From a virus (lineage: Duplodnaviria; Heunggongvirae; Uroviricota; Caudoviricetes), in IMG/VR virus record IMGVR_UViG_2585427970_000003: DNA of 51,664 nt; one strand, 5' to 3'. This document shows positions 28,199 through 49,044 of the stretch, in pieces; the first letter of the stretch is position 1, and every line of letters begins with the position of its first letter. The translations under genes were made by a program, and so were the position numbers. The notes under the pieces are model-generated. The model was not told where the DNA came from. It worked only from the letters and a program-made list of their open reading frames with translations, and did no database searches.

Positions 28199-28531
28199 AT
28201 GACGAGCAAAGAAACCTTTACCCATTACCAGCCGCTGGGCAACAGTGACCCGGCACATACGGCAACCGCGCCCGGCGGATTGAGTGCGAAAGCGCCTGCA
28301 ATGACCCCGCTGATGCTGGATACCTCCACCCGTAAGCTGGTTGCGTGGGATGGCACCACCGACGGTGCTGCCGTTGGCATTCTGGCGGTTGATGCTGACC
28401 AGACCAGCACCACGCTGACGTTCTACAAGTCCGGCACGTTCCGTTATGAGGATGTGCTCTGGCCGGAGGCTGCCAGCGACGAGACGAAAAAACGGACCGC
28501 GTTTGCCGGAACGGCAATCAGCATCGTTTAA
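28199..28531 (+). CDS. D: Head decoration protein D
   Basis: [52 protein letters not shown]... Confidence 0.9.
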
Positions 28532-28586
28532 CTTTACCCTTCATCACTAAAGGCCGCCTGTGCGGCTTTTTTTACGGGATTTTTTT

Positions 28587-29612: not shown

Positions 29613-29653
29613 TCATGGCCCTTCGGGGCCATTTTCTCTCTGTGGAGGAGTCC

Positions 29654-30049
29654 ATGACGAAAGATGAACTGATTGCCCGTCTTCAGGTGCTGGGTGAGCA
29701 ACTGAACCGTGATGTCAGCCTGACGGGGACGAAAGAAGAACTGGCACTCCGTGTGGCAGAGCTGGAAGAGGAGCTTGATGACACGGATGACGCTGCCGGT
29801 CAGGACACATCTGTCAGCCCGGAAAATGCGCTGACCGGACATGAAAATGAGGTGGTATCAGCGCAGCCGGATACCGTGACTGATACGGCTGATCTGGTCA
29901 CGGTTGTGGCACTGGTGACGCTGCATACTGATGCACTTCACGCCACGCGGGATGAGGCTGTGGCATTTGTGCTGCCGGGAACGACGTTCCGTGTCTCTGC
30001 CGGTGTGGCAGCTGAAATGACAGAGCGCGGCCTGGCCAGAATGCAATAA
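29654..30049 (+). CDS. FI: DNA packaging protein FI
   Basis: MTKDELIARLQVLGEQLNRDVSLTGTKEELALRVAELEEELDD... Confidence 0.85.
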   Translation: MTKDELIARLQVLGEQLNRDVSLTGTKEELALRVAELEEELDDTDDAAGQDTSVSPENALTGHENEVVSAQPDTVTDTADLVTVVALVTLHTDALHATRDEAVAFVLPGTTFRVSAGVAAEMTERGLARMQ

Positions 30050-30060
30050 CGGGAGGCGCT

Positions 30061-30414
30061 GTGGCTGATTTCGATAACCTGTTCGATGCTGCCATTGCCC
30101 GCGCCGATGAAACGATACGCGGGTACATGGGAACGTCAGCCACCATGACATCCGGTGAGCAGTCCGGCGCAGTAATACGTGGTGTTTTTGATGATCCTGA
30201 AAATATCAGCTATGCCGGACAGGGCGTACGCGTTGAAGGCTCCAGCCCGTCCCTGTTTGTCCGGACTGATGATGTGCGGCAGCTGCGGCGCGGCGACACG
30301 CTGACCATCGGTGAGGAAAACTTCTGGATAGACCGGATTTCGCCGGATGATGGCGGAAGCTGTCATCTCTGGCTTGGGCGGGGCGTACCGCCTGCCGTTA
30401 ACCGTCGCCGCTGA
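30061..30414 (+). CDS. FII: Head-tail connector FII
   Basis: 117 aa MADFDNLFDAAIARADETIRGYMGTSATMTSGEQSGAVIRGVFDDPENISYAGQG... Confidence 0.85.
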   Translation: MADFDNLFDAAIARADETIRGYMGTSATMTSGEQSGAVIRGVFDDPENISYAGQGVRVEGSSPSLFVRTDDVRQLRRGDTLTIGEENFWIDRISPDDGGSCHLWLGRGVPPAVNRRR

Positions 30415-30425
30415 AAGGGGGATGT

Positions 30426-31004
30426 ATGGCCATAAAAGGTCTTGAGCAGGCCGTTGAAAACCTCAGCCGTATCAGCAGAACGGCGGTGCCCGGTGCCGCC
30501 GCAATGGCCATTAACCGCGTTGCTTCATCCGCGATATCGCAGTCGGCGTCACAGGTTGCCCGTGAGACAAAGGTACGCCGGAAACTGGTAAAGGAAAGGG
30601 CCTGGCTGAAAAGGGCCACGGTCAAAAATCCGCAGGCCAGAATCAGGGTTAACCGGGGGGATTTGCCCGTAATAAAGCTGGGTAACGCGCGGATTGTCCT
30701 GTCCCGACGCAGGCGTCGTAAAAAGGGGCAGCGTTCAGCCCTGAAAGGTGGCGGCAGCGTGCTTGTGGTGGGAAACCGTCGTATTCCCGGCGCGTTTATT
30801 CAGCAACTGAAAAATGGCCGCTGGCATGTCATGCAGCGTGTGGCCGGGAAAAACCGTTACCCCATTGATGTGGTGAAAATCCCGATGGCGGTGCCGCTGA
30901 CCACGGCGTTTAAACAGAATATTGAGCGGATACGGCGTGAGCGTCTTCCGAAAGAGCTGGGCTATGCGCTGCAGCATCAACTGAGAATGGTAATAAAGCG
31001 ATGA
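30426..31004 (+). CDS. Z: Tail terminator / completion protein Z
   Basis: 192 aa, lambda gpZ-like. Confidence 0.85.
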   Translation: MAIKGLEQAVENLSRISRTAVPGAAAMAINRVASSAISQSASQVARETKVRRKLVKERAWLKRATVKNPQARIRVNRGDLPVIKLGNARIVLSRRRRRKKGQRSALKGGGSVLVVGNRRIPGAFIQQLKNGRWHVMQRVAGKNRYPIDVVKIPMAVPLTTAFKQNIERIRRERLPKELGYALQHQLRMVIKR

Positions 31005-31396
31005 AACATACTGAACTCCGTGCAGCCGTACTGGATGCACTGGAGAAGCATGACACCGGGGCGACGCTTTTTGATGGTCGCCCCGCTGTTTTTGATGAGG
31101 CGGATTTTCCGGCAATTGCCGTTTATCTCACCGGCGCTGAATACACGGGCGAAGAGCTGGACAGTGATACCTGGCAGGCGGAGCTGCATATCGAAGTTTT
31201 CCTGCCTGCTCAGGTGCCGGATTCAGAGCTGGATTCGTGGATGGAGTCCCGGATTTATCCGGTGATGAGCGATATCCCGGCACTGTCAGATTTGATCACC
31301 AGTATGGTGGCCAGTGGCTATGACTACCGGCGCGACGATGATGCGGGCCTGTGGAGTTCTGCCGATCTGACGTATGTCATTACCTATGAAATGTGA
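31001..31396 (+). CDS. U: Tail terminator U
   Basis: 131 aa [52 protein letters not shown]... Confidence 0.85.
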
Positions 31397-31403
31397 GGAC
31401 GAT

Positions 31404-32144
31404 ATGCCTGTACCAAATCCAGCAATACCGGTGAAAGGTGCCGGAACCACCCTGTGGGTTTATAACGGGAGCGGCGACCCTTATGCGAACCCGCTTTCAG
31501 ACGTTGACTGGTCGCGTCTGGCAAAAGTTAAAGACCTGACGCCCGGCGAACTGACCGCTGAGTCCTATGACGACAGTTATCTCGATGATGAAGATGCGGA
31601 CTGGACCGCGACCGGGCAGGGGCAGAAATCCGCCGGAGATACCAGCTTCACGCTGGCGTGGATGCCCGGAGAGCAGGGGCAGCAGGCGCTGCTGGCGTGG
31701 TTTAATGAAGGTGATACCCGTGCCTATAAAATCCGCTTCCCGAACGGCACGGTCGATGTGTTCCGTGGCTGGGTCAGCAGTATCGGTAAGGCGGTGACGG
31801 CGAAGGAAGTGATCACCCGTACGGTGAAGGTCACCAATGTGGGCCGTCCGTCAATGGCAGAAGATCGCAGTACGGTGACGGCGGCAACCGGTATGACCGT
31901 GACGCCTGCCAGCTCCTCGGTGGTGAAAGGGCAGAGCACCACGCTGACCGTGGCATTCCAGCCGGAGGGCGCAACTGACAAGAGCTTCCGTGCGGTGTCA
32001 GCGGATAAAACAAAAGCCACCGTGTCGGTCAGTGGTATGACCATCACCGTGAAAGGCGTTGCTGCAGGTAAGGTCAACATTCCGGTTGTATCCGGTAATG
32101 GTGAACTTGCTGCGGTTGCAGAAATCACTGTCACCGACAGTTAA
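31404..32144 (+). CDS. V: Major tail protein V
   Basis: [57 protein letters not shown]...; C-terminal Ig-like domain. Confidence 0.9.
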
Positions 32145-32159
32145 TCCGGAGAGTCAGCG

Positions 32160-32582
32160 ATGTTCCTGAAAACCGAATCATTTGAACATAACGGCGTGAC
32201 CGTCACGCTTTCTGAACTGTCAGCCCTGCAGCGTATTGAGCATCTCGCCCTGATGAAACGGCAGGCAGAACAGGCGGAGTCAGACAGCAACCGGAAGTTT
32301 ACTGTGGAAGACGCCATCAGAACCGGTGCTTTTGTGGTAGCGATGTCCCTGTGGCATAACCATCCGCAGAAGACAAAGCAGCCTTCCATGAATGAAGCCG
32401 TTAAACAGATTGAGCAGGAAGTGCTTACCACCTGGCCTACAGAGGCAATTTCTCATGCTGAAAACGTGGTGTACCGGCTGTCCGGTATGTCTGAGTTTGT
32501 GGTGAATGATGCCCCTGAACAGGCAGAGGACGCCGGGCCAGCAGAGCCTGTTTCTGCGGGAAAGTGTTCGACGGTGAGCTGA
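32160..32582 (+). CDS. G: Tail assembly chaperone G
   Basis: 140 aa, lambda gpG-like; slippery heptamer G GGA AAG at 32558..32564 near its 3' end. Confidence 0.85.
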   Translation: MFLKTESFEHNGVTVTLSELSALQRIEHLALMKRQAEQAESDSNRKFTVEDAIRTGAFVVAMSLWHNHPQKTKQPSMNEAVKQIEQEVLTTWPTEAISHAENVVYRLSGMSEFVVNDAPEQAEDAGPAEPVSAGKCSTVS

Positions 32583-33022
32583 GTTTTGCCCTGAAACTGG
32601 CGCGCGAGATGGGGCGACCCGACTGGCGTGCCATGCTTGCCGGGATGTCATCCACGGAGTATGCCGACTGGCACCGCTTTTACAGTACCCATTATTTTCA
32701 TGATGTTCTGCTGGATATGCACTTTTCCGGGCTGACGTACACCGTGCTCAGCCTGTTTTTCAGCGATCCGGATATGCATCCGCTGGATTTCAGTCTGCTG
32801 AACCGGCGCGAGGCTGACGAAGAGCCTGAAGATGATGTGCTGATGCAGAAAGCGGCAGGACTTGCCGGAGGCGTTCGTTTTGGCCCGGACGGGAATGAAG
32901 TTATCCCCGCTTCCCCGGATGTGGCGGACATGACGGAGGATGACGTAATGCTGATGACAGTATCAGAAGGGATCGCAGGAGGAGTCCGGTATGGCTTAAC
33001 CGGTAGGCGATCTGGTCGTTGA
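32564..33022 (+). CDS. T: T segment of the G-T -1 frameshift fusion, C-terminally extended by 8 codons
   Basis: -1 frame continues from the slippery site (GKVFDGELSFALKLAREMGRPDW...); the lambda TGA stop position reads TTA (32996..32998), so the frame runs on to 33022. Confidence 0.75.
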   Translation: MFDGELSFALKLAREMGRPDWRAMLAGMSSTEYADWHRFYSTHYFHDVLLDMHFSGLTYTVLSLFFSDPDMHPLDFSLLNRREADEEPEDDVLMQKAAGLAGGVRFGPDGNEVIPASPDVADMTEDDVMLMTVSEGIAGGVRYGLTGRRSGR

Positions 33023-33056
33023 TTTAAGTCTGGATGCGGCCAGATTTGACGAGCAG

Positions 33057-35570
33057 ATGGCCAGAGTCAGGCGTCATTTTTCCGGTACGGAAACTGATGC
33101 GAAAAAAACAGCGGCAGTCGTTGAACAGTCGCTGAGCCGACAGGCGCTGGCTGCACAGAAAGCGGGGATTTCCGTCGGGCAGTATAAAGCCGCCATGCGT
33201 ATGCTGCCTGCACAGTTCACCGACGTGGCCACGCAGCTTGCAGGCGGGCAAAGTCCGTGGCTGATCCTGCTGCAACAGGGTGGTCAGGTTAAGGACTCCT
33301 TCGGCGGGATGATCCCCATGTTCAGGGGGCTTGCCGGTGCGATCACCCTGCCGATGGTGGGGGCCACCTCGCTGGCGGTGGCGACCGGTGCGCTGGCGTA
33401 TGCCTGGTATCAGGGCAACTCAACCCTGTCCGATTTCAACAAAACGCTGGTCCTTTCCGGCAATCAGGCGGGACTGACGGCAGATCGTATTCTGGTCCTG
33501 TCCAGAGCCGGGCAGGCGGCAGGGCTGACGTTTAACCAGACCAGCGAGTCACTGACGGCGCTGGTGAATGCCGGTGTGCGTGGTGGTGAGCAGTTTGAGG
33601 CGATCAGCCAGAGTGTGGCGCGTTTCTCCTCTGCATCCGGCGTGGAGGTGGACAAGGTCGCTGAAGCCTTCGGGAAGCTGACCACAGACCCGACGTCGGG
33701 ACTGACAGCGATGGCACGTCAGTTCCATAACGTGACGGCGGAGCAGATTGCGTATGTTGCTCAGTTGCAGCGTTCCGGAGATGAAGCCGGGGCATTGCAG
33801 GCGGCGAACGAGGCCGCAACGAAAGGGTTTGATGACCAGACCCGCCGCCTGAAAGAGAACATGGGCACGCTGGAGACCTGGGCAGACAGGACAGCACGGG
33901 CATTCAAATCCATGTGGGATTCGGTGCTGGATATTGGTCGCCCGGACACTGCCCAGGGAATGCTGGAGAAAGCAGAAAAGGCTTTTGATGAGGCGGACAA
34001 AAAATGGCAGTGGTATCAGAGCCGAAGCCACCGGCGCGGTAAAACCTCAGCATTTCTTGCCAATCTCCGGGGAGCATGGGAGGACAGAGCGAATGCGCAA
34101 CTTGGGCTTTCAGCCGCCACGTTGCAGGCTGATCTTGAAAAGGCCAGAGAGATGGCAGCAAAGGACTGGGCCGAGTCTGAGGCATCACGGCTGAAATATA
34201 CCGAAGAGGCGCAGAAGGCTTACGAACGCCTGCAGACGCCGCTGGAGAAATATACCGCCCGTCAGGAAGAACTGAACAAGGCACTGAAAGACGGGAAAAT
34301 CCTGCAGGCAGATTACAACACGCTGATGGCGGCGGCGAAAAAGGATTATGAAGCGACGCTGAAAAAGCCGAAACAGTCCGGCGTGAAAGTGTCTGCGGGC
34401 GATCGTCAGGAAGACAGTGCTCATGCTGCCCTGCTGACGCTTCAGGCTGAACTCCGGACGCTGGAGAAGCATGCCGGAGCAAATGAGAAAATCAGCCAGC
34501 AGCGCCGGGATTTGTGGAAGGCGGAGAGTCAGTTCGCGGTACTGGAGGAGGCGGCGCAACGTCGCCAGCTGTCCGCACAGGAGAAATCCCTGCTGGCGCA
34601 TAAAGATGAGACGCTGGAGTACAAACGCCAGCTGGCTGCACTTGGCGACAAGGTTACGTATCAGGAGCGCCTGAACGCGCTGGCGCAGCAGGCGGATAAG
34701 TTCGCACAGCAACAACGGGCAAAACGGGCAGCCATTGAGGCGAAAAACCGGGGGCTTACTGACCGGCAGGCAGCGCGGGAAGCCACAGAACAGCGCCTGA
34801 AGGAACAGTATGGCGATAATTCGCTGGCGCTGAATAACGTCATGTCAGAGCAGAAAAAGACCTGGGCGGCTGAAGACCAGCTTCGCGGGAGCTGGATGGC
34901 AGGCCTCAGGTCCGGCTGGAGTGAGTGGGAAGAGAGCGCCACGGACAGTATGTCGCAGGTTAAAAGTGCAGCCACGCAGACCTTTGATGGTATTGCGCAG
35001 AATATGGCGGCGATGCTGACCGGCAGTGAGCAGAACTGGCGCAGCTTCACCCGTTCCGTGCTGTCCATGATGACAGAAATTCTGCTTAAGCAGGCAATGG
35101 TGGGGATTGTCGGGAGTATCGGTAGCGCCATTGGCGGGGCTGTTGGTGGCGGCGCATCCGCATCAGGCGGTACAGCCATTCAGGCAGCTGCGGCGAAATT
35201 CCATTTTGCAACCGGAGGATTTACGGGAACCGGCGGCAAATATGAGCCAGCGGGGATTGTTCACCGTGGTGAATTTGTCTTCACGAAGGAGGCAACCAGC
35301 CGAATTGGTGTCGGCAACCTGTACCGCCTGATGCGGGGCTATGCGGAAGGTGGTTATGTGGGCGGTGCCGGAAGTCCGGCGCAGATGCGGCGGGCTGAAG
35401 GCATTAATTTTAATCAGAACAATCACGTGGTGATTCAGAACGACGGTACGAATGGTCTGCCAGGTCCACAGATGATGAAGGCAGTGTATGACATGGCCCG
35501 CAAGGGTGCCCGTGATGAAATTCAGGCACAGATGCGCGATGGTGGTCTGTTCTCCGGAGGTGGACGATGA
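33057..35570 (+). CDS. H: Tape measure protein H, N-terminally compromised
   Basis: Native start ATG 32991 is followed by GCT then TAA (32997..32999); longest intact ORF restarts at Met23 (33057), 837 aa, otherwise lambda gpH-like. Confidence 0.8.
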   Translation: MARVRRHFSGTETDAKKTAAVVEQSLSRQALAAQKAGISVGQYKAAMRMLPAQFTDVATQLAGGQSPWLILLQQGGQVKDSFGGMIPMFRGLAGAITLPMVGATSLAVATGALAYAWYQGNSTLSDFNKTLVLSGNQAGLTADRILVLSRAGQAAGLTFNQTSESLTALVNAGVRGGEQFEAISQSVARFSSASGVEVDKVAEAFGKLTTDPTSGLTAMARQFHNVTAEQIAYVAQLQRSGDEAGALQAANEAATKGFDDQTRRLKENMGTLETWADRTARAFKSMWDSVLDIGRPDTAQGMLEKAEKAFDEADKKWQWYQSRSHRRGKTSAFLANLRGAWEDRANAQLGLSAATLQADLEKAREMAAKDWAESEASRLKYTEEAQKAYERLQTPLEKYTARQEELNKALKDGKILQADYNTLMAAAKKDYEATLKKPKQSGVKVSAGDRQEDSAHAALLTLQAELRTLEKHAGANEKISQQRRDLWKAESQFAVLEEAAQRRQLSAQEKSLLAHKDETLEYKRQLAALGDKVTYQERLNALAQQADKFAQQQRAKRAAIEAKNRGLTDRQAAREATEQRLKEQYGDNSLALNNVMSEQKKTWAAEDQLRGSWMAGLRSGWSEWEESATDSMSQVKSAATQTFDGIAQNMAAMLTGSEQNWRSFTRSVLSMMTEILLKQAMVGIVGSIGSAIGGAVGGGASASGGTAIQAAAAKFHFATGGFTGTGGKYEPAGIVHRGEFVFTKEATSRIGVGNLYRLMRGYAEGGYVGGAGSPAQMRRAEGINFNQNNHVVIQNDGTNGLPGPQMMKAVYDMARKGARDEIQAQMRDGGLFSGGGR

Positions 35571-35896
35571 AGACCTTCCGCTGGAAAGTGAAACCCGGTA
35601 TGGATGTGGCTTCGGCCCCTTCCGTCAGGAAAGTGCGCTTTGGTGATGGCTATTCCCAGCGAGCGCCTGCCGGGCTGAATGCCAACCTGAAAACGTACAG
35701 CGTGACGCTTTCTGTTCCCCGTTGGGAGGCCACGGCGCTGGAGTCGTTTCTGGCTGAGCACGGGGGCTGGAAAGCCTTTCTGTGGACGCCGCCTTATGAG
35801 TGGCGGCAGATAAAGGTGACCTGCGCAAAATGGTCGTCGCGGGTCAGTATGCTGCGTGTTGAGTTCAGCGCAGAGTTTGAACAGGTGGTGAACTGA
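35567..35896 (+). CDS. M: Tail tip assembly protein M
   Basis: 109 aa MKTFRWKVKPGMDVASAPSVRKVRFGDGYSQRAPAGLNANLKTYSV... Confidence 0.85.
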   Translation: MKTFRWKVKPGMDVASAPSVRKVRFGDGYSQRAPAGLNANLKTYSVTLSVPRWEATALESFLAEHGGWKAFLWTPPYEWRQIKVTCAKWSSRVSMLRVEFSAEFEQVVN

Positions 35897-36594
35897 TGCA
35901 GGATATCCGGCAGGAAACACTGAATGAATGCACCCGTGCGGAGCAGTCGGCCAGCGTGGTGCTCTGGGAAATCGACCTGACAGAGGTCGGTGGAGAACGT
36001 TATTTTTTCTGTAATGAGCAGAACGAAAAAGGTGAGCCGGTCACCTGGCAGGGGCGACAGTATCAGCCGTATCCCATTCAGGGGAGTGGTTTTGAACTGA
36101 ATGGCAAAGGCACCAGTACGCGCCCCACACTGACGGTTTCTAACCTGTACGGTATGGTCACCGGGATGGCGGAAGATCTGCAGAGTCTGGTCGGTGGAAC
36201 GGTGGTCCGGCGTAAGGTTTACGCCCGTTTTCTGGATGCGGTGAACTTCGTCAACGGAAACAGTGGCGCCGATCCGGAGCAGGAGGTGATCAGCCGCTGG
36301 CGCATTGAGCAGTGCAGCGAACTGAGCGCGGTGAGTGCCTCTTTTGTACTGTCCACGCCGACGGAAACGGACGGTGCTGTTTTTCCGGGACGTATCATGC
36401 TGGCCAACACCTGCACCTGGACCTATCGCGGTGATGAGTGCGGTTATCACGGTCCGGCAGTCGCGGATGAATATGACCAGCCAACGTCCGATATCACGAA
36501 GGATAAATGCAGCAAATGCCTGAGCGGTTGTAAGTTCCGCAATAACGTCGGCAACTTTGGCGGCTTCCTTTCCATTAACAAACTTTCGCAGTAA
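35896..36594 (+). CDS. L: Tail tip protein L
   Basis: 232 aa, lambda gpL-like. Confidence 0.85.
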   Translation: MQDIRQETLNECTRAEQSASVVLWEIDLTEVGGERYFFCNEQNEKGEPVTWQGRQYQPYPIQGSGFELNGKGTSTRPTLTVSNLYGMVTGMAEDLQSLVGGTVVRRKVYARFLDAVNFVNGNSGADPEQEVISRWRIEQCSELSAVSASFVLSTPTETDGAVFPGRIMLANTCTWTYRGDECGYHGPAVADEYDQPTSDITKDKCSKCLSGCKFRNNVGNFGGFLSINKLSQ

Positions 36595-36599
36595 ATCCC

Positions 36600-37343
36600 A
36601 TGACACAGACAGAATCAGCGATTCTGGCGCACGCCCGGCGATGTGCGCCAGCGGAGTCGTGCGGCTTCGTGGTGAGAGCGCCGGAGGGGGAAAGATATTT
36701 TCCCGGCGTGAATATTTCCGGTGAGCCGGAGGATTATTTCCGGATGGCTCCGGAGGACTGGCTGCAGGCAGAAATGCAGGGTGAGATTGTGGCGCTGGTC
36801 CACAGCCACCCCGGTGGTCTGCCCTGGCTGAGTGAGGCTGACCGGCGGCTGCAGGTGCAGAGTGATTTGCCGTGGTGGCTGGTCTGCCGGGGGGCGATTC
36901 ATAAGTTCCGCTGTGTGCCGCATCTCACCGGGCGGCGCTTTGAGCACGGGGTGACGGACTGTTACACGCTGTTCCGGGATGCTTATCATCTGGCGGGGAT
37001 TGAGATGCCGGATTTTCATCGCGAGGATGACTGGTGGCGTCACGGTCAGAATCTCTATCTGGATAATCTGGAGGCCACAGGGCTGTATCAGGTGCCGTTG
37101 TCAGCGGCGCAGCCGGGCGATGTGCTGCTGTGCTGTTTTGGTTCATCGGTGCCGAATCATGCCGCCATTTACTGTGGTGACGGTGAGCTGCTGCACCATA
37201 TTCCTGAACAACTGAGTAAACGAGAGAGGTACACCGACAAATGGCAGCGACGCACACACTCCCTCTGGCGTCACCGGGAATGGCACGCATCTGCCTTTAC
37301 GGGGATTTGCAACGATTTGGCCGCCGCATCGACCTTCGTGTGA
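36600..37343 (+). CDS. K: Tail tip assembly protein K (JAMM/MPN plus NlpC/P60-type)
   Basis: MTQTESAILAHARRCAPAESCGFVV...; HSHPGG...SEAD metalloprotease-like motif. Confidence 0.8.
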   Translation: MTQTESAILAHARRCAPAESCGFVVRAPEGERYFPGVNISGEPEDYFRMAPEDWLQAEMQGEIVALVHSHPGGLPWLSEADRRLQVQSDLPWWLVCRGAIHKFRCVPHLTGRRFEHGVTDCYTLFRDAYHLAGIEMPDFHREDDWWRHGQNLYLDNLEATGLYQVPLSAAQPGDVLLCCFGSSVPNHAAIYCGDGELLHHIPEQLSKRERYTDKWQRRTHSLWRHREWHASAFTGICNDLAAASTFV

Positions 37344-37912
37344 AAACGGGGGCTGAAGCCATCCGCGCACTGGCCACACAGCTCCCGGCGTTTCGTCAGA
37401 AACTGAGCGACGGCTGGTATCAGGTACGGATTGCCGGGCAGGATGTCAGCACGTCCGGATTAACGGCGCAGTTACATGAGACTCTGCCTGATGGCGCTGT
37501 GATTCATATTGTTCCCAGAGTCGCCGGGGCCAAGTCTGGTGGTGTATTCCAGATTGTCCTGGGAGCAGCCGCCATTGCCGGATCATTCTTTACCGCCGGA
37601 GCCACCCTTGCAGCATGGGGGGCAGCCATTGGGGCCGGTGGTATGACCGGCATCCTGTTTTCTCTCGGTGCCAGTATGGTGCTCGGTGGTGTGGCGCAGA
37701 TGCTGGCACCGAAAGCCAGAACTCCCCGTACACAGACAACGGATAACGGCAAACAGAACACCTATTTCTCCTCACTGGATAACATGGTTGCCCAGGGCAA
37801 TGTTCTGCCTGTTCTGTACGGTGAAATGCGCGTGGGGTCACGCGTGGTTTCTCAGGAGATCAGCACGGCAGACGAAGGGGATGGTGGTCAGGTTGTGGTG
37901 ATTGGTCGCTGA
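37241..37912 (+). CDS. I: Tail tip assembly protein I
   Basis: 223 aa, lambda gpI-like; overlaps the 3' end of K. Confidence 0.8.
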   Translation: MAATHTLPLASPGMARICLYGDLQRFGRRIDLRVKTGAEAIRALATQLPAFRQKLSDGWYQVRIAGQDVSTSGLTAQLHETLPDGAVIHIVPRVAGAKSGGVFQIVLGAAAIAGSFFTAGATLAAWGAAIGAGGMTGILFSLGASMVLGGVAQMLAPKARTPRTQTTDNGKQNTYFSSLDNMVAQGNVLPVLYGEMRVGSRVVSQEISTADEGDGGQVVVIGR

Positions 37913-37972
37913 TGCAAAATGTTTTATGTGAAACCGCCTGCGGGCGGTTTTGTCGTTTATGGAGCGTGAGGA

Positions 37973-40900
37973 ATGGGTAAAGGCAGCAGTAAGGGGCATA
38001 CCCCGCGCGAAGCGAAGGACAACCTGAAGTCCACGCAGCTGCTGAGTGTGATCGATGCCATCAGCGAAGGGCCGGTTGAAGGTCCGGTGGACGGATTAAA
38101 AAGCGTGCTGCTGAACAGTACGCCGGTGCTGGACAGTGAGGGGAATACCAATATATCCGGCGTCACGGTGGTGTTCCGGACCGGTGAGCAGGAGCAGTCA
38201 CCGCCGGAGGGATTTGAATCCTCCGGCTCCGAGACGGTGCTGGGTACGGAAGTGAAATATGACACGCCGATCACCCGGACCATCACGTCGGCAAACATCG
38301 ACCGTCTGCGCTTTACCTTCGGTGTACAGGCACTGGTGGAAACCACCTCAAAGGGGGACCGGAATCCGTCGGAAGTCCGCCTGCTGGTTCAGATACAGCG
38401 TAATGGTGGCTGGGTGACGGAAAAAGACATCACCATTAAGGGCAAAACCACCTCGCAGTATCTGGCCTCGGTGGTGGTGGATAACCTGCCGCCGCGCCCG
38501 TTCAATATCCGGATGCGCAGGATGACGCCGGACAGCACCACAGACCAGCTGCAGAACAAAACGCTCTGGTCGTCATACACCGAAATCATCGATGTGAAAC
38601 AGGGCTACCCGAACACGGCACTGGTCGGCGTGCAGGTGGATTCGGAGCAGTTCGGCAGCCAGCAGGTGAGCCGTAATTATCATCTGCGCGGGCGTATTCT
38701 GCAGGTGCCGTCGAATTATAACCCGCAGACGCGGCAATACAGCGGTATCTGGGACGGAACGTTTAAACCGGCATACAGCAACAACATGGCCTGGTGTCTG
38801 TGGGATATGCTGACCCACCCGCGCTACGGCATGGGGAAACGTCTTGGTGCGGCAGATGTGGATAAATGGGCGCTGTATGTCATCGGCCAGAATTGCGACC
38901 AGTCGGTGCCGGACGGCTTTGGCGGCACGGAGCCGCGCATTACCTGTAATGCGTACCTGACCACACAGCGCAAGGCGTGGGATGTGCTCAGTGATTTCTG
39001 CTCGGCGATGCGCTGTATGCCGGTATGGAACGGGCAGACGCTGACGTTCGTGCAGGACCGACCGTCGGATAAGGTGTGGACCTATAACCGCAGTAATGTG
39101 GTGATGCCGGATGATGGCGCGCCGTTCCGCTACAGCTTCAGCGCCCTGAAGGACCGTCATAATGCCGTTGAGGTGAACTGGATTGACCCGAATAACGGCT
39201 GGGAGACGGCGACAGAGCTTGTGGAGGATACGCAGGCCATTGTCCGTTACGGTCGTAACGTCACGAAGATGGATGCCTTTGGCTGTACCAGCCGGGGGCA
39301 GGCGCACCGCGCCGGGCTGTGGCTGATTAAAACGGAACTGCTGGAAACGCAGACCGTGGACTTCAGCGTGGGTGCGGAAGGGCTTCGCCATGTACCGGGG
39401 GATGTCATTGAAATCTGCGATGATGACTATGCGGGTATCAGCATCGGCGGGCGCGTGCTGGCGGTGAACAGCCAGACCCGGACGCTGACGCTCGACCGTG
39501 AAATCACGCTGCCATCCTCCGGTACCACGCTGATAAGCCTGGTTGACGGAAGTGGCAATCCGGTCAGCGTGGAGGTCCAGTCCGTCACCGACGGCGTGAA
39601 GGTAAAAGTGAGCCGTGTTCCTGACGGCGTTGCCGGATACAGCGTGTGGGGGCTGAAGCTGCCGACGCTGCGCCAGCGCCTGTTCCGCTGCGTGAGTATC
39701 CGTGAGAACGATGACGGCACGTATGCCATCACCGCCGTGCAGCATGTACCGGAAAAAGAGGCCATCGTGGATAACGGGGCGCACTTTGACGGCGACCAGA
39801 GCGGCACGGTGAATGGTGTCACGCCGCCAGCGGTGCAGCACCTGACTGCCGAAGTCACCGCAGACAGCGGGGAATATCAGGTACTGGCCCGCTGGGACAC
39901 GCCGAAGGTGGTGAAGGGGGTGAGCTTTATGCTTCGCCTGACCGTGGCAGCGGATGACGGCAGTGAGCGGCTGGTCAGCACAGCCCGGACGGCGGAAACC
40001 ACATACCGCTTCACACAACTGGCGCTGGGGAACTACAGGCTGACAGTCCGGGCAGTAAATGCGTGGGGGCAGCAGGGCGATCCGGCATCGGTATCGTTCC
40101 GGATTGCCGCACCGGCAGCGCCGTCGCAGATTGAGCTGACACCGGGGTATTTTCAGATAACCGCCACGCCGCATCTTGCGGTTTATGATCCGACGGTACA
40201 GTTTGAGTTCTGGTTCTCGGAAAAGCGGATTGCGGATATCAGGCAGGTTGAAACCAGCGCGCGCTATCTTGGCACGGGGATGTACTGGATAGCCGCCAGT
40301 ATCAATATCAAACCGGGCCATGATTATTACTTTTATATCCGCAGTGTGAACACCGTTGGCAAATCGGCATTCGTGGAGGCTGTCGGTCAGGCGAGCGATG
40401 ATGCGGAAGGTTACCTGGATTTTTTCAAAGGCCAGATAACCGAATCCCATCTCGGCAAGGAGCTGCTGGAAAAAGTCGAGCTGACGGAGGATAACGCCAG
40501 CAAACTGGAGGAGTTTTCGAAAGAGTGGCAGGACGCTAACGATAAGTGGAATGCCATGTGGGGCGTCAAAATTGAGCAGACCAAAGACGGCAAACATTAT
40601 GTCGCGGGTATTGGCCTCAGCATGGAGGACACGGAAGAAGGTAAGCTGAGCCAGTTTCTGGTTGCCGCTAACCGTATCGCGTTTATTGAACCGGCAAACG
40701 GGAATGAAACGCCGATGTTTGTGGCGCAGGGCAATCAGATATTTATGAACGACGTGTTCCTGAAGCGCCTGACGGCCCCGACCATTACCAGCGGTGGAAA
40801 TCCACCGGCATTTTCCCTGACATCAGACGGAAAGCTGACCGCTAAAAATGCGGATATCAGTGGCAGTGTGAATGCGAACGCCGGGACGCTCAACAATGTC

Positions 40901-41446
40901 ACGGTAAATGAAAACTGTACGATTAAGGGCATGCTGGAGGCGACTCAGGTCAGAGGTGACTTCGTTAAAGCTGTATCCAAATCATTCCCGAAACAGGCTG
41001 GTACGTGGGGTAATACGGAAACACCAAACGGGACGGTTACAGTCACCATCAGCGATGATCATAACTTTGACCGTCAAATCATTATTCCGCCCATTATCTT
41101 TAACGGAATAGCGTATAGCGATCCGGGAAGTGGTAATAACCCGGGAGGTACAAGATACACGGGTTATGGTTTTGAAGTTCGCAAAAACGGTGTATTAATC
41201 GCATCCAGAGAAACTAAAGGGGCCATTCCCGGTAGCTACAGTGCGGTTATTGATATGCCGAGTGGCAGGGGAAGCGTCACTCTGGAGTTTAAGGTTTTCC
41301 ATAAAGGCAATCAGCGGGCAGGTAATATCACCGACTGTACGGTGATTGTGACCAAAAAAGCGGCTTCTGCGTATTTTCATGAAAGGAGATCACTCAATAA
41401 CTTCCATCGAGATCGGGTAATAACATTTGAACAGATCGCTGAATAA
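37973..41446 (+). CDS. J: Tail tip / host-specificity protein J, 3' end replaced by IS-derived sequence
   Basis: [43 protein letters not shown]...; the last 25 codons (from 41369) lie inside the left inverted repeat of an IS21-family element. Confidence 0.85.
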
Positions 41447-41560
41447 CATCGATGGAGATCACTTTTGACTCATTTTGTTATTCAGTGATCTCCATCAATG
41501 TTATTGGAACTTCACAGGTGTGTTGATCTGTATCTTTTGCCATTCCGGTAAAGGATACCT

Positions 41561-43102
41561 ATGCCAACAGTTCCAATTTCTATGAGAAAACTTAAAGAAA
41601 TTCTTAGGCTTAAATACGGTGTTGGACTCAGCCATCGACAAATTGGTCGTAGTCTTGCAATCTCCCCTTCCGTTGTATCCAGATATGCTAATCGGGCGGC
41701 TCAACTTGGCATAAAGCAGTGGCCCTTACCTACAGGATGGGATGATACAAAACTAAAACATGCGTTCCTTCAGACCCAGGTTAAGATGAAGAAGCACTCT
41801 CTGCCTGACTGGGCTACAGTACACCGGGAACTGCGTAATAAATGCGTGACGCTGCAGCTACTCTGGGAAGAATACTGTGAGCGTAATCCAGGCGGTTTTT
41901 ACAGCTATAACCATTACTGCCGGATGTACCGTGAATGGCTCAAAACCACTTCACCATCAATGCGTCAGGTACATAAAGCTGGCGAAAAACTTTTCGTTGA
42001 TTACTGTGGACCTACCGTTGGCGTTACCGACCCTGAGACCGGAGAAATAAGAACTGCTCAGGTCATCGTAGCTGTTCTCGGGGCATCAAGTTACACATGG
42101 GCAGAGGCCACCTGGTCTCAGCAGCTTGAAGACTGGGTGATGAGTCATGTTCGCTGCTTCCAGTGGTTGGGTGGCGTTCCTGAACTTGTTGTTCCGGACA
42201 ATCTGAAAAGCGCCACATCCAGGGCATGTAAGTATGATCCTGACGTTAACCCTACCTACCAGCAGATGCTTGAGCATTATAATGTCGCAGTTTTGCCTGC
42301 GCGGCCACGTAAACCGAAAGATAAAGCCAAAGCTGAAGTTGGCGTTCAGGTTGTTGAACGCTGGATCATGGCCCGAATCAGGCATGAGATCTTCTACAGC
42401 CTTGCATCGCTTAATCAGCGCATTCGGGAGTTGCTGGAAAGACTGAATAACAAAATAATGCAGAAGTTGGGTTATTCACGTGCAGAACTCTTCATCCAGC
42501 TTGATAAACCCGCACTGAAGCCTCTTCCTGAAGCCAGTTACAGTTACACCCTGGTGAAGAAAGTCAGAGTTCATGCCGATTACCACGTGGAAATCGACAA
42601 ACATTACTACTCGGTTCCATGTTCGCTGTTAGGCCAGCAACTGGAAGCATGGATCTCCGGAGAACTGGTAAGACTCTTCAATCAGGGGCAGGAGGTTGCT
42701 GTGCACCCGCGCAAGCGTACTTATGGCTACAGTACCCGCAACGAGCACATGCCTGAAGCTCATCGACAGCATGCCACCTGGACGCCAGAGCGTCTTCTGG
42801 AATGGGCGGGGCACATAGGCAGTGAAACTCATAGTTATGTGCTTCATATACTGAACTCTCGTCCACATCCGGAACAAAGCTATCGCTTCTGCCTTGGACT
42901 CCTGAACCTTCATAAAAAATACAGTAAAGCCAGACTTAATGCAGCATGTGCAAGAGCTCTGAAAACAAAGGTATGGCGTCTGTCAGGTATTAAATCGATC
43001 CTGGAAAAAGGTCTGGATAAACAACCTGTTCAGGATCCAAAACCAGATCTGTTATCCACGATGGAACACGAAAACGTACGCGGCAGTGAGTATTACCACT
43101 GA
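41561..43102 (+). CDS. istA: IS21-family transposase IstA
   Basis: 513 aa; N-terminal HTH then integrase-core-like catalytic region. Confidence 0.8.
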   Translation: MPTVPISMRKLKEILRLKYGVGLSHRQIGRSLAISPSVVSRYANRAAQLGIKQWPLPTGWDDTKLKHAFLQTQVKMKKHSLPDWATVHRELRNKCVTLQLLWEEYCERNPGGFYSYNHYCRMYREWLKTTSPSMRQVHKAGEKLFVDYCGPTVGVTDPETGEIRTAQVIVAVLGASSYTWAEATWSQQLEDWVMSHVRCFQWLGGVPELVVPDNLKSATSRACKYDPDVNPTYQQMLEHYNVAVLPARPRKPKDKAKAEVGVQVVERWIMARIRHEIFYSLASLNQRIRELLERLNNKIMQKLGYSRAELFIQLDKPALKPLPEASYSYTLVKKVRVHADYHVEIDKHYYSVPCSLLGQQLEAWISGELVRLFNQGQEVAVHPRKRTYGYSTRNEHMPEAHRQHATWTPERLLEWAGHIGSETHSYVLHILNSRPHPEQSYRFCLGLLNLHKKYSKARLNAACARALKTKVWRLSGIKSILEKGLDKQPVQDPKPDLLSTMEHENVRGSEYYH

Positions 43103-43113
43103 TACGGGATCCA

Positions 43114-43863
43114 ATGATGAATCATCTTTACGAACAACTGACCGCACTTAAACTCACCGGCTTCCGTGATGCGCTTAAAAAGCAACTTGCTCAGCCGGGC
43201 ACATACCAGGAGCTGGGCTTCGAAGAACGCCTGTCATTACTGACAGCAGAAGAACTAACCTGCCGTGAAAACAGGAAGGCAGAGCGTCTGATCAAACATG
43301 CACGGTTCAGACTTAATGCTGAGTTATCAAAGCTGGATTATCGTAACAATAGAGGGCTGGACAGGGCCCTCATCCGTTCACTCAGTCAGGGAAACTGGTT
43401 AACCCTGAAACAAAATATTTTACTGACCGGGGCCACCGGCAGCGGTAAAACGTTCCTGGCATGTGCACTTGGTCATAATGCCTGCCGACAGGGATACAAG
43501 GTCTACTATTATCGCCTTAAAGCGCTGATGGAACAGTGCTATCAGGGGCATGCTGATGGAAGATACAGCAAACTTTTGACCAGGCTGAATAATAGCGATC
43601 TGCTGCTTCTGGATGACTGGGGGCTGGAACCTCTCTCATCAGAACAGCGTAGCGACCTGCTGGAAATAGTGGATCTGATGTACCAACGAGGCTCAATCAT
43701 CGTAGTGAGCCAGTTGCCGGTGGAAAACTGGTACAAAATGATCGGAGACTCCACACATGCGGATGCCATCCTAGATCGACTGGTTCATGGCAGTATCAAG
43801 ATCGAACTTAAAGGAGAATCAATGCGGAAAATACAATCTCCGTTGACCGAAGGAGATCAGTGA
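43114..43863 (+). CDS. istB: IS21-family ATP-binding helper IstB
   Basis: 249 aa; Walker A GATGSGKT, Walker B LLLLDDWG. Confidence 0.85.
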   Translation: MMNHLYEQLTALKLTGFRDALKKQLAQPGTYQELGFEERLSLLTAEELTCRENRKAERLIKHARFRLNAELSKLDYRNNRGLDRALIRSLSQGNWLTLKQNILLTGATGSGKTFLACALGHNACRQGYKVYYYRLKALMEQCYQGHADGRYSKLLTRLNNSDLLLLDDWGLEPLSSEQRSDLLEIVDLMYQRGSIIVVSQLPVENWYKMIGDSTHADAILDRLVHGSIKIELKGESMRKIQSPLTEGDQ

Positions 43864-44042
43864 AGGTAATTTAAAAACGGTTCTGTGAAAGTGACACGAA
43901 CCGATCTCCATCGATGTTACTCACCGATCTCCTTCACGGTAATACGCAGCTTCAGGCATCAGTATTCGTTGAAATATTTATAACCCCAATAAATGGCGTC
44001 AGGAATGACGCCTTTTTTATTGCAGAAAAGCGAGAGGTAATT

Positions 44043-44642
44043 ATGCGTAAAGTTTGTGCAGCCATTTTGTCCGCAGCCATTTGTCTGGCCGTATCCGGTG
44101 CGCCTGCATGGGCGTCTGAACATCAGTCCACGCTGAGCGCGGGGTATCTTCATGCCCGGACCAACGTTCCCGGCAGTGATGATCTGAACGGGATTAACGT
44201 GAAATACCGTTATGAGTTTACGGATACGCTGGGGCTGGTGACGTCATTCAGCTATGCAGGAGACAAGAATCGCCAGCTGACCCATTACAGCGATACCCGC
44301 TGGCATGAAGATTCCGTTCGTAACCGCTGGTTCAGCGTAATGGCGGGGCCGTCTGTGCGCGTGAATGAATGGTTCAGCGCGTATGCGATGGCGGGTGTGG
44401 CTTACAGCCGTGTGTCGACTTTCTCCGGGGATTATCTCCGCGTAACTGACAACAAGGGGAAAACGCACGACGTGCTGACCGGAAGTGATGACGGTCGCCA
44501 CAGCAACACGTCTCTGGCGTGGGGAGCTGGCGTGCAGTTTAACCCGACCGAATCCGTGGCCATTGATATTGCTTATGAAGGCTCCGGCAGTGGCGACTGG
44601 CGCACTGACGGTTTCATCGTGGGTGTCGGTTATAAGTTCTGA
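44043..44642 (+). CDS. lom: Lom outer-membrane protein (Ail/Lom family)
   Basis: MRKVCAAILSAAICLAVSGAPAWA signal peptide; C-terminus ...DIAYEGSGSGDWRTDGFIVGVGYKF as in lambda Lom. Confidence 0.85.
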   Translation: MRKVCAAILSAAICLAVSGAPAWASEHQSTLSAGYLHARTNVPGSDDLNGINVKYRYEFTDTLGLVTSFSYAGDKNRQLTHYSDTRWHEDSVRNRWFSVMAGPSVRVNEWFSAYAMAGVAYSRVSTFSGDYLRVTDNKGKTHDVLTGSDDGRHSNTSLAWGAGVQFNPTESVAIDIAYEGSGSGDWRTDGFIVGVGYKF

Positions 44643-44697: not shown

Positions 44698-44706
44698 GGG
44701 GTGAAT

Positions 44707-47700
44707 ATGGCAGTAAAGATTTCAGGTGTACTGAAAGACGGCACAGGAAAACCGGTACAGAACTGCACAATCCAGCTGAAAGCAAAACGTAACAGCACCA
44801 CGGTGGTGGTGAACACGCTGGCCTCAGAAAATCCGGATGAAGCCGGGCGTTACAGCATGGACGTTGAGTACGGTCAGTACAGCGTTATTCTGTTGGTGGA
44901 AGGATTCCCGCCGTCACATGCCGGGACCATCACCGTGTATGAAGATTCCCGACCCGGTACGCTGAATGATTTTCTCGGTGCCATGACGGAGGATGATGCC
45001 CGTCCGGAGGCTCTGCGCCGTTTTGAACTGATGGTGGAAGAGGTGGCGCGTAACGCGTCCGCGGTGGCACAGAACACGGCAGCCGCGAAGAAGTCAGCCA
45101 GTGATGCCGGCACATCTGCCAGTGAGGCGGCAACCCATGCGACTGATGCTGCAGGCTCAGCGCGTGCAGCCAGCACGTCAGCCGGACAGGCCGCGACGTC
45201 GGCTCAGGAGGCGTCTTCCAGCGCAGGAACGGCATCAACAAAGGCCACTGAAGCATCAAAAAGTGCTGCCGCTGCAGAGTCCTCAAAAAGCGCGGCGGCC
45301 ACCAGTGCCGGTGCCGCGAAAACGTCAGAAACGAATGCTGCAGCGTCACAAAAATCAGCAGCCACTTCTGCATCCACTGCGACGACGAAAGCGTCAGAAG
45401 CCGCCACTTCAGCCCGGGATGCGGCGGCCTCCAAAGAGGCGGCAAAATCATCAGAAACGAACGCCTCCACAAGCGCCAGCAGTGCAGCCTCCTCGGCAAC
45501 GGCGGCAGGAAATTCCGTGAAGGCGGCAAAAACGTCCGAGACGAATGCTAAGTCTTCTGAAACGGCAGCGGAACAGAGCGCCTCAGCTGCGGCAGACTCT
45601 GAGACAACAGCTGCATCATCGGCCCGTGAGGCGTCCATTAAGGCAGAGGAGGCAGCAGTCAGTGCCACCGCCGCCGGAAAATCGGCAGAAAGCGCCGCAT
45701 CATCCGCTTCAACAGCCACAACGAAGGCTGGCGAAGCCACTGAACAGGCCAGCGCAGCAGCGAGGTCTGCTTCCGCAGCGAAGACATCCGAAACGAACGC
45801 GAAAGCGTCGGAAACCAGCGCAGAATCCTCAAAAACGGCTGCCGCATCGTCCGCCAGTTCGGCGGCGTCATCGGCATCATCGGCGTCTGCTTCAAAAGAT
45901 GAGGCGACCAGACAGGCGTCAGCAGCGAGGGGCAGCGCCACGACGGCATCCACGAAGGCGACAGAGGCTGCTGGCAGTGCGGCAGCGGCAGCACAGAGCA
46001 AAAGTACGGCAGAATCCGCAGCAACGCGCGCCGAGACAGCAGCAAAACGGGCAGAGGATATTGCATCCGCCGTGGCGCTTGAGGATGCGAGCACGACGAA
46101 AAAGGGGATAGTACAGCTCAGTAGTGCGACTAACAGCACTTCCGAGTCACTGGCGGCAACACCAAAAGCCGTTAAGGCCGCGTATGACCTGGCTAACGGG
46201 AAATACACCGCACAGGATGCAACGACAGCACAGAAAGGGATAATCCAGCTAAGCAGCGCGACCAACAGCACGTCTGAAACGCTTGCCGCGACACCAAAGG
46301 CAGTAAAAGCAGCCAATGACAATGCTGAGAAACGTCTGCAGAAAGATCAGAACGGTGCGGATATCCCTGGCAAAGATACCTTTACGAAAAATATTGGTGC
46401 CTGCCGTGCCTTCGGTGGGTCAGTAAGCACAACAACAGGAAACTGGACGACTGCACAGTTTATCGAGTGGCTGGATTCTCAGGGAGCATTTAACCATCCA
46501 TACTGGATGTGCAAGGGTTCCTGGTCTTATGGCAATAATAAAATCATTACTGATACTGACTGCGGTAATATTCATCTCGCCGGAGCTGTCATTGAAGTAA
46601 TGGGGATAAAGTCAGCGATGACGATCCGCATTACCACACCGACCACCTCCACTGGTGGTGGAACAACTAACGCCCAGTTTACCTATATTAATCACGGAAC
46701 AGATTATTCACCTGGCTGGCGAAGGGACTATAACTCCAGAAATAAGCCAACGGCATCAGAGATCGGGGCGTTACCGTCAGGTGGAACAGCAGTATCATCA
46801 GTTAATCTGGCTTCAAAAGGTCGGGTAACCGCGCTGACAGACAATACGCAGGGGGCAGCAGGTCTTGAGTTATACGAGGTGTATAACAACGGATATCCAA
46901 CAGCGTATGGAAATATCATTCACCTGAAAGGGATGACAGCCGTTGGCGAAGGTGAGTTACTCATCGGCTGGAGTGGTACAAGCGGTGCTCATGCTCCGGC
47001 ATTTATTCGTTCACGACGGGATACGACCGACGCAAACTGGTCGCCGTGGGCGCAGCTTTACACCTCGGCTCATCCTCCTGCAGAGTTTTATCCAGTCGGT
47101 GCACCAATCCCGTGGCCATCAGATACCGTTCCGTCTGGCTATGCCCTGATGCAGGGGCAGACTTTTGACAAATCTGCATACCCGAAACTTGCAGTTGCTT
47201 ATCCGTCAGGCGTGATCCCTGATATGCGTGGCTGGACGATTAAGGGCAAGCCCGCCAGTGGTCGGGCCGTATTATCTCAGGAACAGGACGGCATTAAATC
47301 GCACACCCACAGCGCCAGCGCATCCAGTACGGATTTGGGGACGAAAACCACATCGTCGTTTGATTACGGAACCAAATCCACGAATAACACCGGGGCGCAT
47401 ACCCATAGTATTAGCGGGACCGCAAATAGTGCCGGTGCGCACCAACACAAGAGTTCCGGTGCATTTGGTGGCACGAACACGAGCATTTTCCCTAATGGTT
47501 ATACCGCGATTTCAAATCTAAGCGCGGGGATTATGAGCACAACAAGCGGTAGTGGCCAGACTCGTAATGCAGGGAAGACATCATCAGATGGTGCTCATAC
47601 CCACTCGCTGTCCGGCACTGCTGCAAGCGCAGGCGCACATGCACATACTGTCGGTATTGGTGCTCATACGCACTCCGTTGCGATTGGTTCACATGGACAC

Positions 47701-47781
47701 ACCATCACCGTTAACGCTGCTGGTAACGCGGAAAACACCGTCAAAAACATCGCATTTAACTATATTGTGAGGCTTGCATAA
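44707..47781 (+). CDS. stf: Side tail fibre Stf (full length)
   Basis: [60 protein letters not shown]...; long Ala/Ser/Thr-rich central repeat; His-rich C-terminal region. Confidence 0.85.
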
Positions 47782-48356
47782 TGGCATTCAGAATGAGTGA
47801 ACAACCACGGACCATAAAAATTTATAATCTGCTGGCCGGAACTAATGAATTTATTGGTGAAGGTGATGCATATATTCCGCCTCATACAGGTCTGCCAGCA
47901 AACAGTACCGATATTGCACCGCCAGATATTCCGGCTGGCTTCGTGGCTGTTTTCAACAGTGATGAGTCATCGTGGCATCTCGTTGAAGATCATCGGGGTA
48001 AAACGGTTTATGACGTGGCTTCCGGCGACGCGTTATTTATTTCTGAACTCGGTCCGTTACCGGAAAATGTTACCTGGTTATCGCCGGAAGGGGAGTTTCA
48101 GAAGTGGAACGGCACAGCCTGGGTGAAGGATACGGAAGCAGAAAAACTGTTCCGGATCCGGGAGGCGGAAGAAACAAAAAACAACTTGATGCAGGTAGCC
48201 AGTGAGCATATTGCGCCGCTTCAGGATGCTGCAGATCTGGAAATTGCAACGGAGGAAGAAATCTCGTTGCTGGAAGCATGGAAAAAGTATCGGGTATTGC
48301 TGAACCGTGTTGATACGTCAACTGCACAGGATATTGAATGGCCAGCACTGCCGTAG
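47781..48356 (+). CDS. tfa: Tail fibre assembly protein Tfa
   Basis: 191 aa; start overlaps stf stop by 1 nt. Confidence 0.8.
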
Positions 48357-48453
48357 GGTAAAACATATAAATTCTATAATTAGATGTATCTTTCCATTTA
48401 CGGCAAGGAAGGGGGCTTGGAAGACGTAAAGCATCTCACACCGAGATTATTTT

Positions 48454-49044
48454 TTATATGTCAGGTGTCTGAAGTTTTGCTTTGGCTCTTAAAATGGTTT
48501 GCCGCGAGGTTTTGAATTCCCGGGCAATGGCACTTATACTTACACCTGACTTAATTCGTTCGAATACCGCCTGTTTCTGTTCTTCATTTAACACAGGTGG
48601 TCGACCAAAACGTTTCCCTGCGCCGCGGGCTCTTACTATCCCGGAATGAGTGCGTTCAAGTAAAAGGTCTCGTTCAAATTCAGCGACTGCTGAAATTACT
48701 TGCATCATCATTTTTCCTGTTGGACTGGTCAGGTCAATGCCCCCCAATGCTAAGCAATGCACTCTGATACCTGTTTCGGTCAGTTGTTCCACTGTTTTCC
48801 TGATATCCATTGCATTACAGCCAAGGCGATCCAGTTTTGTCACAATCAATTGATCACCACATTTCAGGCGAGCAAGCAACCGGTTAAAACCAGGACGCTC
48901 ACTGGTTGCTGCTGAGCCGCTAATGTGTTCTTCGATTATTTGCTGAGGTTTGATTTTAAAACCTGCACTTTCGATTTCCCGGCGTTGATTTTCGGTGGTC
49001 TGATCCAGCGTTGATATCCGACAGTAAGCAAAAATTTGAGACAT
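48454..49044 (-). CDS. pin: Serine recombinase, Pin-type DNA invertase
   Basis: 196 aa [29 protein letters not shown]...; resolvase catalytic Ser motif and C-terminal HTH. Confidence 0.85.

Follow-up and report, generated by a model that had tools for sequence, protein, structure and literature searches.

Organization of the prophage and of gene J

The window, i.e., the whole stretch of 51,664 nt of DNA analysed here, contained an integrase gene followed by early, lysis, head and tail genes and then by an MFS transporter gene at the far end, which looks like host DNA. The prophage is a complete lambdoid, lambda-like prophage of E. coli, and no tRNA genes were found in the window. The window sequence is present without differences in the E. 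coli assembly GCA_000714975.1. The head and tail genes were ~97% identical to those of lambda. When positions 22092–40942 were aligned as DNA with the lambda segment that begins at cos/Nu1 and ends at nt 2970 of J, the identity was 95–98%, in agreement with the initial annotation of this DNA, which had described the rest of the tail module as close to lambda. The features that bear on the J locus are collected in Table 1.

J was located at the lambda-type position in the tail operon, downstream of M-L-K-I and upstream of lom and stf. Six Pfam domains were detected in its ORF in the order FNIII-A_GpJ, Phage-tail_3, Ig_J, Ig_J_second, Phage_Tail_Tip and Ig_GpJ_C, which is the full order of gpJ: FNIII-A, hub, two Ig/FNIII domains, tail-tip fibre and C-terminal Ig receptor-binding domain (RBD). 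The score on the NCBIfam profile lambda_TipJ (NF049904) was 2275 bits, with a curated cutoff of 1950. Residues 1–1132 covered positions 1–1158 of the 1163 positions of this profile, and the last five were unmatched. J belongs to the lambda gpJ family and is the trimeric protein of the tail tip and central fibre. The 1157-aa protein is already held by NCBI as WP_244442793.1, under the name "host specificity protein J".

Table 1. Features of the window that bear on the J locus, with positions in the window.
Feature	Position	Strand	Evidence or remark
Integrase	20–1315	minus	First gene of the window
J ORF as found, 3474 nt, 1157 aa	37973–41446	+	J residues 1–1132 plus 25 IS-encoded residues
Lambda-like part of J (hub, FNIII, helical shaft, central straight fibre), residues 1–974	37973–40894	+	
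434-type receptor-binding cassette, ~470 bp, J residues 975–1132	40895–41367	+	Identity to 434-type RBDs
Target-site duplication GCTTC, left copy	41363–41367	.	Match to the right copy
ISEc12 (IS21 family), 2581 bp, ends TGCGTATT...AATACGCA	41368–43948	+	Identity to annotated copies
IS-encoded J tail, 25 residues and stop, J residues 1133–1157	41368–41446	+	Translation
istA transposase, 513 aa	41561–43102	+	Pfam rve, Mu-transpos_C_2
istB helper ATPase, 249 aa	43114–43863	+	Pfam IstB_IS21, 2e-67
Target-site duplication GCTTC, right copy	43949–43953	.	Match to the left copy
Displaced 3′ end of J (rest of a Ser codon, then GISIR and stop)	43954–43972	+	In-silico excision
J terminator-like hairpin and T-tract (hairpin 43995–44012)	43995–44020	+	The IS now lies between it and J
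lom, Ail/Lom outer-membrane protein, 199 aa	44043–44642	+	Pfam Ail_Lom, 4e-123

ISEc12 insertion at the 3′ end of J

The reading frame of J was interrupted by ISEc12 at codon 1132/1133, which was 15 nt before the stop codon, and the phage matches to the J gene all ended at nt 3395–3402. Terminal inverted repeats of the form TG...CA and repeated sub-terminal sites were present at the ends of the element. IstA scored 310 bits on the NCBIfam profile transpos_IS21 (cutoff of 160), and IstB scored 270 bits on IS21_help_AAA (cutoff of 200). The two ORFs that follow J (513 and 249 aa) were also considered as accessory receptor or defence genes; this reading was ruled out, since they are the IstA and IstB genes of the element. 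Over 2580 bp (41369–43948), the element was 100%, 99.96% and 99.88% identical to three annotated copies, the first being the copy in NZ_CM147701 and the second that in JJ1887, both of which are ISEc12 in the PGAP annotation. ISEc12 is reported to produce 5-bp duplications (PMC10711316), and the other three copies were flanked by CCGCT, ACTTT and GGAGG. The insertion in J is recent, as the element has stayed intact and shows no difference from other copies. The initial annotation had overlooked that ISEc12 cuts the J module short. Its interval ended at 41367, which coincides with the last J-derived base; the continuation of the ORF beyond this base (residues 1133–1157; 41368–41443) is encoded by the left end of the IS.

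On the far side of the element, the hairpin with its T-tract lies at the place equivalent to that of an annotated terminator in phage 434. The 5′ three-quarters of lom resembled the gene of 434 and PhiR29_2 and was not lambda-like; homology to lambda picked up again only at 44515. A 242-aa ORF at 43914–44642 was rejected as a new gene and is lom with a spurious upstream extension from the right end of the IS.

Further, independent insertions of ISEc12 were seen in the middle of the J gene of strain 25-07338 and in lom, where G6/7 and ST131 strains had them at two different sites. The insertion into J is a routine event caused by a known IS and is nothing new in kind. It is very doubtful that ISEc12 prefers the J–lom junction of lambdoid prophages or that the IS-encoded tail gives a J with altered receptor triggering; if a regional preference were real, ISEc12 would be a recurrent route to disabling or retuning the host-recognition genes of prophages.

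Effect of the insertion on the J protein

Removal of positions 41368–43953 in silico restored a 1137-aa ORF that ended in KKAASGISIR, the same end as in the J proteins of 434 and PhiR49_1. In the interrupted gene, the last five codons of J (GISIR) were displaced by 25 IS-encoded residues, which none of the 120 matches listed (of 256) covered, the query coverage among them being at most 88%. This tail had pLDDT values of 28–44 in the predicted structure of the 1157-aa J, and is probably disordered according to the model. All RBD types in the alignment had the terminus G-I-S/T-I-S/R (GISVV in lambda), including those with 50% identity or less, and G199, I200 and I202 were invariant among them. 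In the monomer model of the uninterrupted 434-type tip, the terminal pentapeptide was the last β-strand, with moderate pLDDT values of ~55–70. The residue immediately preceding this pentapeptide in lambda is L1127, and the lambda allele J1127-1 (Q1078R plus L1127P) alters the adsorption rate (PMC3176204). As the conserved terminal strand was lost, a probably disordered tail was gained and the site of lambda L1127P adjoins, the J::ISEc12 allele is probably impaired.

The β-strands up to residue 1132 were all kept in the interrupted J, and a C-terminal extension might therefore be tolerated. It is nevertheless unlikely that the fusion is fully functional, with a harmless or useful tail and infectious particles still being made. 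Only five residues were lost, and the β-sandwich core was predicted with good confidence, but the lost pentapeptide is the very segment that RBD types of low mutual identity have kept. The remaining head and tail ORFs were apparently full length, and Q-antiterminated late transcription could, by extension from lambda biology, continue past the element into lom, stf and tfa. On the other hand, a second IS is present in the prophage, which is consistent with decay. The frequency of the allele argues against full function as well. The exact 1157-aa protein was found on 2 contigs only, whereas the 90%-identity cluster of the window J had 4993 members, among which the 1137-aa form dominated in those listed (11 of 15, the others being 3 shorter or partial members and the 1157-aa query). 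Furthermore, none of 5426 complete E. coli genomes had the exact J::ISEc12 junction, and three apparent full-length matches in these genomes were two-piece joins ~450 bp apart. The junction is the sole strain-specific feature.

Divergence from lambda and type of the receptor-binding domain

J was aligned with the J proteins and genes of lambda (J02459), phage 434 (OL657226) and PhiR49_1. The identity to lambda J per 50-aa bin was 92–100% up to ~residue 950 and then fell to 74, 42, 30 and 20%. At the DNA level, the 100-nt bins showed 87–99% up to 40872, followed by 72, 51, 43, 45 and 47%. Residues 1–974 were 95–98% identical to lambda in three sub-blocks, with a DNA mismatch of 4.5%, and residues 910–974 were still 93–96% lambda-like. 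The mismatches to lambda started to cluster at 40893, and a maximum chi-square scan placed the best breakpoint at 40923, where the mismatch rate rose from 4.6% before this position to 53.9% after it (chi-square of 987; none of 1000 permutations exceeded 22). The breakpoint range was hence 40893–40923, and the jump spanned ~30 nt. Within the divergent block, the identity to lambda was 38.7% for amino acids and ~46% for nucleotides, with indels in the loops.

In the initial annotation, the last ~200 residues of J had been described as divergent from lambda, with a uniform level of identity along the protein named as the outcome that would speak against it. The pairwise alignment contradicted such uniformity and gave a sharp drop instead. 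The divergence of the distal domain was thus upheld and its extent corrected to ~158 residues (975–1132; ~40895–41367). The peptide quoted there was found in the J translation and starts at residue 975 (nt 40895). Judged by sequence, J lacks the identity to lambda residues ~975–1132 that would mark a lambda-type, LamB-binding RBD.

The RBD was 95.1% identical to that of phage 434 over 163 aa, with 8 substitutions and no indels. The bins that diverged from lambda were 87–96% identical to 434 J in DNA and 90–98% in protein, and 98–100% identical to PhiR49_1 J. Moreover, the cassette was 99–100% identical to the RBDs of PhiR49_1, phi458 and Stx2c phages. Its GC content was 45–51% versus 51–61% in the lambda RBD, and the Pfam domain Ig_GpJ_C spanned J residues 1001–1131. 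The cassette is the classical h434 allele, which is common in E. coli.

Predicted fold and receptor

A β-sandwich was predicted by AlphaFold2 for the RBD segment, with pLDDT values of ~75–95 in the core. The best structural matches in the PDB were 9wcb and 9wca (A8 gpJ, 47–48% identity) and 8xcj and 8xck (lambda gpJ, 41%). The OmpC-bound and free forms of A8 gpJ are given by 9wcb and 9wca, respectively, and A8 gpJ was also the best PDB match by sequence; no structure of a 434-type RBD was present in the PDB copy searched. The lambda RBD is an Ig-like domain, of which four bottom loops enter LamB; binding splays the three RBDs, and a twist travels up the fibre and opens the tail (PMC11101478). 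The predicted structure suggests that the fold and the mechanism triggering tail opening would be common to the window RBD and the solved gpJ RBDs.

The specificity of J is set by its C-terminal part, and the use of 434 J in place of lambda J is reported to switch the receptor from LamB to OmpC (PMC3509688, PMC11101478). The genome sequence of lambda h434 is also available (PMC9119081). As the RBD was 95% identical to that of 434, the receptor of the window cassette should, by homology, be OmpC rather than LamB. The OmpC allele is not fixed by homology, because related chimeras discriminate between OmpC alleles and 8 of the 163 RBD positions differ from 434. The OmpC-binding gpJ chimeras A8 and 1A2 differ in the OmpC variants that they accept (PMC11338833), and single substitutions in J shift porin or receptor use in phi21 and lambda (PMC11336670). 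With the RBD 5% diverged from 434, the cassette might bind one OmpC allele only, or another porin, instead of the K-12-type OmpC. This is quite improbable, since the 95% identity to 434 holds along the entire domain, without indels, and the variants with 91–100% identity make up one tight class that is widespread in E. coli, E. albertii and Shigella. A literature search on the receptors of the PhiR (ECOR) phages that share the cassette returned nothing relevant.

Exchange of the cassette between phages

The amino acid identities of the window J to eight phages are given in Table 2 for four blocks of the protein.

Table 2. Amino acid identity (%) of phage J proteins to the window J in four blocks.
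Phage	Hub (1–600)	FNIII/shaft (601–900)	Fibre (901–974)	RBD (975–1137)
Lambda	97.7	95.0	94.6	38.7
434	98.5	95.3	94.6	95.1
PhiR49_1	98.0	97.0	97.3	99.4
phi458	97.5	74.7	89.2	100
Stx2c_PV98-693	75.5	96.3	95.9	99.4
2851	75.3	54.0	79.7	93.9
PhiR29_2	97.5	96.0	95.9	44.8
YYZ-2008	75.3	53.7	79.7	44.4

The block identities differed from phage to phage, indicating that the RBD and the J backbone assort independently. The J of the Stx2c phage carried a 99.4% identical cassette on a hub that was just 75.5% identical, whereas lambda and PhiR29_2 had the backbone in common with the window J (95–98%) and RBDs that were 39–45% identical. The comparison with PhiR29_2, which has another RBD type, was also made in 60-nt bins after removal of the IS. 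The identity was 91–98% upstream and 90–100% downstream (J–lom spacer and lom), and it was only 33–58% in the bins from 40940 to 41359. Both flanks were conserved and the cassette between them was divergent, which is the signature expected of a cassette exchange by homologous recombination.

With the 173-aa tip of J as a tblastn query against 50,697 phage records, the RBD identities were bimodal: 74 records were at 90% or more and 182 were below 60% (lambda at 42%), with none between. A similar gap was seen among the matches listed in a search of 5.8 billion proteins, except for one truncated 133-aa match with 68% identity, and the 434-type tip occurred among the listed matches in E. coli, E. 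albertii and Shigella sonnei. In-place divergence of the distal domain by rapid point mutation and diversifying selection, with no module exchange, is scarcely credible: receptor-binding domains evolve fast, single J mutations change the receptor in lambda and phi21 (PMC11336670) and some residues are conserved across all RBD types, but the mismatch rises from 4.6% to 54% within ~30 nt, cassettes with 99–100% identity sit on ~75% identical backbones while near-identical backbones carry RBDs with 39–45% identity, and there are no intermediates at 60–90% identity. The initial reading of the block as a swapped receptor-specificity module was hence strengthened, since the same cassette is found on different backbones and behaves as exchangeable. 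Such a swap is already known and is ordinary lambdoid mosaicism.

Proposed history of the locus

It is very probable that J is a lambda-like J with an exchanged, OmpC-type 434 RBD cassette and a later ISEc12 insertion that most likely impairs it. The ~470-bp cassette would move between lambdoid phages via homologous recombination in the conserved flanks, namely, the coding sequence of the central fibre upstream and the 3′ end of J, the terminator and lom downstream. Through the cassette, the tail tip would attach to the OmpC porin trimer, and this binding would set off tail opening as that of lambda J to LamB does. A later transposition of ISEc12 duplicated GCTTC close to the stop codon and swapped the GISIR strand for the 25 IS-encoded residues, and the element now also lies between J and its terminator, with lom-stf-tfa beyond. 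The resulting J allele of the strain is most likely impaired or inactive. The mosaic structure, the type of the cassette, the make-up of the IS and the restored ORF were observed in the sequence, whereas the OmpC receptor, the route of recombination and the damage to function are inferences.

If particles still form, the prophage is predicted to target OmpC, not LamB. WP_244442793.1, with its 1157 aa, is an IS-fusion artefact of the 1137-aa 434-type J, and ORF ends beside IS elements need to be checked before they are treated as native proteins. The locus is a textbook case of a J tip that was exchanged as a cassette, and it has little significance beyond annotation.

Comparison with known systems

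The closest system is the J of phage 434 (OL657226, UMO75286.1), which carries the h434 allele. Once the IS is removed, the window J has the same 1137 aa and the same KKAASGISIR terminus, and the order of J, terminator and lom is also the same. The window J differs by the 8 substitutions in the RBD and by the displacement of the last five codons by ISEc12. In comparison with lambda gpJ (LamB-binding; PDB codes 8xcj, 8xck and 8iyk), the domain architecture, the operon position and the predicted RBD fold are the same and the backbone is 95–98% identical, whereas the RBD is only 38.7% identical and the type of lom also differs. The A8 gpJ chimera (PDB codes 9wca and 9wcb; Brödel et al. 2024, PMC11338833) likewise has an OmpC-binding RBD on a lambda backbone. 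Its RBD belongs to another class, which is common in O157-type prophages, and is 47–48% identical to the window RBD; hence, the contact residues of A8 are not transferable to the window RBD. Finally, the insertion of ISEc12 into tssM in ST131 clade C (PMC10711316) involved the same element, a 5-bp duplication and the disruption of a gene. In the window, by contrast, ISEc12 struck the last codons of a prophage tail gene, which was not split but now encodes a protein with a replaced C-terminus.

ISEc12 Insertions and the Replaced Segment Around J and lom

At least four distinct lambdoid prophages carry ISEc12 in or adjoining J and lom, at differing sites; the query for the copies included the J and lom flanks, so this set of sites is ascertainment-biased and does not demonstrate a regional preference. 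In the window, the element was inserted at codon 1132/1133 of J, whereas the site was mid-J in strain 25-07338 and within lom in G6/7 and in the ST131 strain JJ1887. A separate 5-bp duplication accompanied each of these insertions. The coordinates of the copies in the window and in three other sequences (L004, L005 and L006) are summarized in the table.

The 5' three-quarters of lom (44043-44515) was non-lambda and shared 90-100% identity with PhiR29_2, YYZ-2008 and 434, and the homology to lambda was recovered only from 44515. Hence, the block replaced relative to lambda spans the receptor-binding domain of J through most of lom. The types of these two parts do not always go together, since the lom of PhiR29_2 is the same but its receptor-binding domain is different. 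A 242-aa ORF in the ORF list (43914-44642) consisted of lom itself (44043-44642, 199 aa) and a spurious N-terminal extension that begins within the right end of ISEc12.

Features of the window and ISEc12 copies in other sequences
Feature	Location	Strand	Size	Remarks
Tyrosine integrase	left arm, within 20-4166		431 aa	
RecE-type exonuclease	left arm, within 20-4166		835 aa	
DNA methyltransferase fragment	8499-8855		118 aa	
ISNCY-family transposase	10522-11835	+	437 aa	NCBIfam 456 bits (cutoff 250)
H, tape-measure gene	33057-35570		837 aa	
ISEc12, window	41368-43948			
ISEc12, L004	5044-7621			
ISEc12, L005	4471-7051			
ISEc12, L006	4001-6581			
Side tail fibre	within 44701-49044		1026 aa	intact; phage_tail_N, fibre repeats, Collar
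Tail-fibre assembly protein (tfa)	47781-48356			
Pin-like serine invertase (pin)	48454-49044	opposite to fibre genes		

Other Regions of the Prophage

The region 44701-49044 encodes a side tail fibre, its assembly protein and a Pin-like serine invertase. Only about 100 bp separates tfa from pin, and an invertible alternative fibre segment therefore seems to be missing. The product of H is shorter than that of lambda (853 aa); a stretch of approximately 200 nt (33976-34179) had no blastn alignment to lambda, and the remainder of the gene was 95-97% identical to it.

Besides ISEc12, the window carries a second insertion sequence, of the ISNCY family, in the early/nin region. Its transposase gene lies approximately 1.7 kb downstream of the DNA methyltransferase fragment. 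This second element suggests that insertion sequence hits are building up in the prophage.

Furthermore, the left arm (20-4166) was unlike lambda, indicating that the prophage is a hybrid, in which a non-lambda early region is joined to a lambda-type structural module. The integrase and the RecE-type exonuclease of this arm are likewise found in Rac-like prophages.
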